A model generated the notes under the pieces. It saw nothing but the letters and a program-made list of their open reading frames with translations, was not told the DNA's origin and did not search any database. This document shows, piece by piece, positions 34,873 to 35,321 of a DNA stretch of 41,897 nucleotides. The translations under genes and the position numbers were made by a program. Numbering within the stretch: position 1 is the first letter of the stretch; every line of letters begins with the position of its first letter. The DNA is from a virus (Duplodnaviria; Heunggongvirae; Uroviricota; Caudoviricetes), in IMG/VR virus record IMGVR_UViG_651053023_000011, positions 1 through 41,897 of that record; one strand, written 5' to 3'.

Positions 34873-34984
34873 CTCCTTACGGATAAATCTTTTAAGATTC
34901 CGCACATTCGTACTTGTTGGTGCCGAACCTTCCTTCAGTTATCTTTTTGATCCCTATAAACAAAAGAACCAAAGGAGGTTCGAC

Positions 34985-35237
34985 ATGTCACAAAAAAAAC
35001 GATATTCCTGTTTTTCCTATTACAGCCTGGCAGGCTGGACCATTGCCCGGTTATGGTGCGCTAGCATTAAAATTCCAGTACCTGACTTCCCCTATGCAAC
35101 CACTGGATTCAGCACAAGAAACTCAGTTCTTCGCGCTTACTCCCGAAATGACTGAGACTTTGATCTCCGATCTGCGCCGACATATTGAGACGCTGAAAAA
35201 ATCCGGTATTCACAGCCCACAAGAAAACAGGCATTAA
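34985..35237 (+). CDS. small antisense-oriented gene, apparently frameshifted at an A8 run
   Basis: ATG at 34985 with AAGGAGG RBS; after the A8 run (~34992-34999) the +1 frame is open to a stop at 35235-37 just before a terminator. Confidence 0.35.
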
Positions 35238-35267
35238 TCGAAAAAACGGTTGCCGCATAATTTCTTG

Positions 35268-35300
35268 AAAAGCGTCGCGCACTGGCGCTTTTCATTTCTC
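35268..35300 (+). terminator. terminator candidate downstream of small + strand gene
   Basis: GAAAAGCG/CGCTTTTC stem followed by T-rich tract. Confidence 0.4.
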
Positions 35301-35321
35301 TACGATCAACAAGCATGCACC

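Follow-up and report, generated by a model that had tools for sequence, protein, structure and literature searches.

A bssS-like accessory gene between cro and rha of a phiP27-like Escherichia coli prophage, probably inactivated by a heritable extra adenine

We analysed positions 34873-35321 of a 41,897-nucleotide (nt) stretch of viral DNA (IMG/VR record IMGVR_UViG_651053023_000011, hereafter the window), an interval that holds a small gene of the BssS family interrupted by a run of eight adenines (A8). The element carrying it is a phiP27-like lambdoid prophage of E. coli, and the Stx2e phage phiP27 aligns to 58% of positions 20000-41897 of the window with 93.9% identity. An earlier reading made from the letters alone (the sequence-only reading) had placed a small gene between rha and cro on the opposite strand, and this arrangement holds: the flanking genes match PF09669 and PF15943 and are both encoded on the - strand, with the small gene on the + strand. 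The features of the locus, in window coordinates and with open reading frame given as ORF and amino acids as aa, are these:

34972-34978, + strand: Shine-Dalgarno sequence AAGGAGG, 7 nt 5′ of the ATG, shared unchanged with relatives and with the SE11 prophage, which has other cargo
34986-35155, + strand: 56-aa out-of-frame ORF (MSQKKRYSCF...) of the A8 allele, from the true ATG to a TGA at 35153-35155; no family
34992-34999, + strand: uninterrupted A8 homopolymer, a +1 A frameshift at codons 4-5; the ancestral seven-adenine form (A7) reads CAA AAA AAC
34998-35237, + strand: rest of the BssS-family frame (residues Asn5-His83 and the TAA), not in frame with the ATG; PF13991 55-56 bits, phrog_10846 E 4e-51
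35266-35304, + strand: intrinsic terminator of the accessory gene, with a 12-bp stem (35266-35294) and a U-rich tail (TTTCTCT after the hairpin)
34917-34945, + strand: candidate weak sigma-70 promoter, TTGGTG-17-TATCTT, from a lenient scan (7/12 matches)
34873-35321, unstranded: accessory ('moron') insertion, between the rha start codon and the cro stop codon; an empty site in E. coli 'numer 3' and occupied by another ORF in SE11
34159-34872, - strand: rha, downstream gene of the early-right operon (PF09669, 33.5 bits; RefSeq annotation of relatives)
35322-35564, - strand: Cro-like helix-turn-helix regulator of the YdaS family (PF15943, 55 bits), convergent with the accessory gene
35684-36376, + strand: CI/LexA-like repressor with S24 peptidase domain (PF00717, 63 bits)

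The ATG (34986-34988, + strand) with its near-perfect ribosome binding site was correctly recognised in the sequence-only reading, as were the A8 run and the continuation in the +1 frame to a stop codon, the TAA at 35235-35237. In the window codons 3-5 read CAA AAA AAA and are followed by CGA, and the +1 frame is open already upstream of A8. Removing one A gives a 252-nt coding gene whose product, MSQKNDIPVFPITAWQ...SPQENRH, is the coherent protein that had been foreseen, although its size is 83 aa and not about 85.

The identity of this protein is directly supported by curated families. The A7 reconstruction scores 56.1 bits against the Pfam BssS family PF13991 (cutoff 27) and the +1 frame of the window 55.0 bits; moreover, the reconstruction matches the phage family phrog_10846 at E 4.4e-51 over positions 1-83 of 83. 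No family in Pfam or NCBIfam matches the 56-aa peptide read from the ATG. Membership of the BssS family is thus upheld by the hidden Markov model score, whereas an intact ORF from the gene's own start is absent from the window owing to A8. A homology search of the reconstructed product, which had been suggested as a check, bore out the proposed frame: 21 relatives were found in 5.8 billion proteins, from E. coli, Salmonella, Klebsiella, Atlantibacter, Kluyvera and Tatumella, and all 16 of the distant relatives retrieved are exactly 83 aa long, in frame, and begin MS(Q/K/N)(K/Q/D/E/T)(D/N)DIP. RefSeq names the locus in relatives 'bssS family protein'. Since there is both a curated-family match over threshold and a large set of in-frame 83-aa relatives, the feature stands above chance.

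The prophage protein resembles chromosomal BssS in scoring above the PF13991 gathering threshold and in length (83 aa against 84 aa), and K-12 bssS has an A7 run of its own at codons 2-4 (ATGGAAAAAAATAAT; locus L005, 4940-4956, - strand). It differs in being prophage-borne, within the immunity region, and frameshifted in the window copy. Moreover, orthology with chromosomal BssS is ruled out: the chromosomal equivalog model NF008958 of NCBIfam gives 23.7 bits, below its cutoff of 125, and BLASTP of the reconstructed protein against K-12 BssS returned no alignment. Chromosomal BssS (YceP) is known by phenotype alone: PMC3646849, which cites and extends Domka et al. 2006, describes it as a biofilm regulator that influences indole and autoinducer-2 signalling and has a part in colonisation resistance of the mouse gut. 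PADLOC recovered no defence-system match for the BssS-like protein, and a sequence search of the PDB gave no meaningful match. A literature search on prophage BssS-like genes found nothing relevant, 'BssS' referring mostly to the enzyme Nb.BssSI or to expression studies of chromosomal bssS.

The hairpin terminator predicted after the stop codon is well supported. It folds at -15.3 kcal/mol (z = -3.3), and an equally good fold arose in 0 of 200 shuffles. Its position is kept in distant homologues, where the stem shows compensatory changes (AGCGCC/GGCGCT versus AGCACC/GGTGCT); judged by these comparisons, the terminator appears to travel with the gene. The sequence-only reading had likened the locus to lambda oop, a short non-coding RNA that overlaps the 3′ end of cII. 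What the two share is a leftward-type transcript that lies within the rightward early operon and is terminated by a hairpin. However, the gene in the window is protein-coding (252 nt) and ends 18-28 nt before the cro stop codon, and when 34000-36500 was scanned against Rfam with a permissive cutoff, a chance snoRNA match was the sole hit, with no oop-like or other known RNA. Being a coding insertion with a PF13991 match, no cro overlap and no Rfam family, the locus is not an oop-like antisense RNA.

The boundaries of the insertion can be read directly by comparison with E. coli 'numer 3' (locus L035, 1726-1850), an empty site in which the cro stop codon overlaps the rha start codon (ATGA); relative to it, the window has 449 extra bases (34873-35321) between cro and rha. 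The C-terminus of Cro in 'numer 3' is slightly longer than in the window. E. coli SE11 (locus L034, 2001-2400) has the same 114-nt upstream region, Shine-Dalgarno sequence and ATG (34873-34988 in the window), followed by an unrelated 97-aa ORF, MKVQAVGLFWFRDAIQ..., that has its own hairpin/terminator and no match in Pfam or PADLOC. By the pattern of matches, prophages of about 74 further complete E. coli genomes without bssS share the 114-nt upstream region at 97-98% identity, probably in the SE11 arrangement. In Salmonella phage F1055 the homologue lies at a different genome position, beside the repressor of that phage. Morons, a concept of Hendrix and Juhala, are extra genes with their own promoter and terminator, found between genes that are adjacent in related phages. 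The bssS-like gene resembles them in its presence or absence between cro and rha, its own terminator, its opposite orientation and its exchangeable cargo, and at the sequence level both the insertion between otherwise adjacent genes and the dedicated terminator are found. It differs in having at best a candidate promoter and, in the window copy, an inactivated cargo. The gene and its terminator therefore make up a putative moron, an accessory insertion of about 450 bp in reverse orientation between cro and rha, and the cro/rha interval looks like an exchangeable cargo slot. Recombination has left a sharp mosaic boundary where rha starts: in a 2.5-kb comparison of the window with ETEC1732 (locus L001), all 98 of 98 single-nucleotide polymorphisms (SNPs) fall in rha (33900-34872). 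The bssS-cro-cI segment is identical between the two.

The A8 allele is found well beyond the window. Among 5,426 complete E. coli genomes the locus is present in 12, with A8 in six (ETEC1732, ETEC1749, ETEC4085, rl0044, E92 and E94) and A7 in six (ETEC1734, ETEC1738, cq9, U90, HNSQ2209 and OkiPb01695); the run was scored by alignment length and also checked base by base in ETEC1732 (A8) and in ETEC1734, cq9 and OkiPb01695 (A7). In a collection of 15 billion proteins the exact 56-aa frameshift ORF occurs on 170 contigs, in 236 collection blocks, and these contigs are almost all 5-50 kb long, a size typical of short-read assemblies. A8 was present in 8 of 8 sampled loci, and two SPAdes metagenome contigs with 15x and 23x coverage carry it. 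No genome paper giving the sequencing platform of the ETEC17xx strains was found in a literature search.

The two tract lengths are unevenly spread over coding haplotypes. The haplotype of the window, Thr34/Thr55, is mostly A8, with the 56-aa ORF on the 170 contigs and the intact 83-aa protein on 15; mis-started long models of the same haplotype are found on 143 and 268 contigs plus a few smaller counts, and these contig counts may overlap, given that gene callers can model one contig differently. The sister haplotype Ala34/Ala55 has A7 on 302 contigs. Other coding haplotypes have A8-type ORF variants only rarely (P0017, 1 contig; P0018, 3 contigs). The only tract lengths seen anywhere are A7 and A8, with no A6, A9 or A10. 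In the near-clonal pair ETEC1732 and ETEC1734 the former has A8 and the latter A7 in otherwise identical sequence; tract length is thus polymorphic between close strains, as at a contingency locus. Given its tight link to one coding haplotype, A8 has the character of an inherited loss-of-function mutation in a tract prone to slippage, and there are hints that it has recurred.

Taken together, we consider it probable that 34873-35321 is a self-contained accessory gene in which a real, heritable extra A has created a loss-of-function allele at a lineage-specific slippage hotspot. In this account the segment consists of an upstream region with a strong Shine-Dalgarno sequence, an 83-aa BssS-family ORF and its own intrinsic terminator. 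The A7 run would be a lineage-specific accident of codon choice (Lys4-Asn5 as AAA AAC) and not a conserved recoding signal, and would have acted as a replication-slippage hotspot at which one A was inserted in codons 4-5. Ribosomes starting from the true ATG would then make the 56-aa out-of-frame peptide, leaving the BssS-like protein essentially absent ('OFF'), on the supposition that rescue is lacking. We propose that the intact gene is a lysogen-expressed conversion factor that modulates host surface or signalling behaviour; by analogy with its family, the protein may influence host biofilm formation and signalling. The gene's identity, the limits of the insertion, the conservation of the terminator, the reality and distribution of A8 and the absence of the tract from homologues are the directly supported parts of this account; its promoter, expression in the lysogen, the lack of rescue and the role of the protein are presumed.

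Three other explanations of A8 have to be weighed against a fixed mutation. The sequence-only reading had raised a sequencing error, in which the genome is truly A7 and the extra A arose in sequencing or assembly. Homopolymers are error-prone on long-read platforms, and the window has a private 1-nt deletion at about 34886-34890, in the rha 5′ untranslated region some 100 nt from A8, where it reads AAATC; 30 of 33 other related loci read AAATTC and the remaining three are unscorable. This deletion may be genuine, or it may point to indel errors in the assembly from which the window derives. However, an artefact behind A8 is very unlikely because the exact allele recurs, on an identical bssS-cro-cI segment, in many independent, mostly short-read assemblies and in metagenome contigs, and we give the error almost no credence. 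It had further been suggested that the tract is phase-variable, and the A7/A8 length variation among relatives is real. A true contingency tract, in which slipped-strand mispairing toggles a BssS-like lysogenic-conversion gene at high frequency, would suit the position of the run just past the start at codons 4-5, which is typical of translational switches, as well as the ETEC1732/ETEC1734 pair and the variants P0017 and P0018. Several observations weigh against a single fixed mutation. A7 and A8 both occur on 2.5-kb backgrounds with 0 SNPs, including in a short-contig draft assembly (L014), and all four combinations of A7/A8 and the SNP at 34944, 48 nt upstream, are found; one further event or more is therefore likely, and this gives repeated switching some room. 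Moreover, some A7 copies come from long-read assemblies that have other indels (in L019, a split cI). Those long-read A7 copies, with their possible homopolymer errors, also count against a switch, as does the strong tie to haplotype, with the sister haplotype's 302 A7 contigs set against one for its A8-type variant P0017 and, on the haplotype of the window, 170 contigs with the 56-aa ORF against 15 with the 83-aa protein. A8 on diverged flanks, tried as proof of recurrence, does not serve as such: the flanking SNPs all lie within rha and are consistent with recombination there. Homopolymer frameshift pseudogenes and contingency loci share with the window a mononucleotide run that lies directly behind the start, has changed by +1 nt and varies in length among close relatives; the run here, however, is short for a contingency locus (7-8 nt), has two states, is tied to haplotype and is absent from homologues. 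A7/A8 therefore does not look like a fast contingency switch, which we regard as unlikely, and the haplotype tie speaks against the rapid toggling that phase variation would entail. The most economical conclusion is an ordinary slippage hotspot, mutated at least once and probably a few times, and clonally inherited.

The remaining explanation is that the A8 allele is still expressed, the frameshift acting as an expression attenuator through a +1 slip of tRNA-Lys on AAA-AAA or deletion of an A by RNA polymerase; to regain the frame from A8, either the transcript must lose 1 nt or the ribosome must shift by +1. Low-level rescue by one of these routes may occur, and it would weigh against complete loss of function. 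The outcome of the promoter scans also counts against the preferred account: a stricter consensus scan found no promoter on the + strand and the lenient scan nothing convincing. The frame after the tract is intact in all A8 copies examined, and pig and cattle E. coli lineages have retained the allele, which is common in them. However, the A8 copies are near-identical and recent, so that an intact frame after the tract carries no weight as evidence. In other systems, namely human apoB and Deinococcus IS elements, A8 tracts are reported to slip (PMC1088944). By contrast, comparative genomics shows selection against such runs from about 9 nt in many bacteria (PMC1088944), and when E. coli RNA polymerase was examined systematically with reporters, deletion slippage on poly(A) was undetectable in the runs tested, which extended up to A8 (PMC6260861). 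No +1 stimulator is visible in the sequence near A8, whether an internal Shine-Dalgarno sequence 3 nt upstream, a stop or hungry codon context, or downstream structure. Moreover, the site is not conserved. The A tract is confined to the close E. coli lineage in which residues 4-5 are Lys-Asn encoded as AAA AAC, and homologues at 67-80% identity (F1055, IMG/VR) are in frame without any run: TCTCAGAAGGATGAT, TCTAATAAAGATGAT and TCTAAACAAGACGAT. Programmed frameshifting or transcriptional slippage, which had also been suggested, is rejected on these grounds, the homologues being single-frame 83-aa genes, A8 being almost confined to one coding haplotype, and the run being below the length for detectable deletion slippage by E. 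coli RNA polymerase on poly(A). A -1 ribosomal slip on A-AAA-AAA is rejected as well, since it would enter the third frame, where translation would end after about 20 codons, and not the frame of BssS. Initiation at in-frame starts upstream (TTG 34914, GTG 34920, ATA/ATC near 34950, ATT 35004), which would yield a protein with a changed N-terminus, is likewise rejected: none of them has a Shine-Dalgarno sequence at a workable distance, and the TTG and GTG also lie upstream of the only plausible promoter. We therefore hold an attenuator to be highly improbable and return to the fixed loss-of-function allele as the preferred explanation.

As to expression of the intact gene, the lenient scan gave weak sigma-70 candidates alone, with 7-8 of 12 matches, a second weak site lying within rha. 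The T/C SNP at 34944 sits in the only plausible -10 element (TATCTT versus TATCCT). A 5-bp hairpin, GAACC-AAAGGA-GGTTC at 34966-34981, encloses the Shine-Dalgarno sequence of the bssS-like gene. Read on the - strand, the same hairpin is followed by TTTTGTTTAT and is terminator-like, just upstream of rha; it is short, and it beats shuffles on both strands (z about -3). From their positions, rightward early transcription from cro to rha must traverse both the 12-bp terminator hairpin and the gene in antisense. The bssS-like gene would be expected to be expressed in the lysogen, with interference during lytic growth.

The frameshift also has consequences for annotation. In A8 genomes RefSeq gives WP_235718092.1, a 105-aa 'bssS family protein' started at the GTG at 34920, which has no Shine-Dalgarno sequence, and other gene callers use ATA, ATC or ATT starts to give 93, 96 or 77 aa. 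In these genomes the domain lies in a different frame from the conserved Shine-Dalgarno sequence and ATG that all in-frame relatives use. Because the gene models start upstream of the true ATG or at other alternative starts, the frameshift is not flagged as a pseudogene, and counts of intact bssS-like prophage genes would be misled by the mis-started A8 models.

In summary, what had seemed an odd antisense ORF belongs to a known family, BssS, and occupies an exchangeable cargo slot within the immunity region, and the widespread A8 allele is a genuine frameshift; as such the feature is ordinary. We estimate it to be improbable that a prophage BssS-like lysogenic-conversion factor is switched ON and OFF, or leakily attenuated, by the A7/A8 run. 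Were it so, pig and cattle E. coli with the phiP27-like prophage would be mixed for a phage-supplied modifier of biofilm formation or signalling, and the A7 run at the matching position of chromosomal bssS would hint at recurrent homopolymer control in the family. The cro/rha slot itself offers a tidy example of cargo exchange and may be mined for lysogen-expressed genes.
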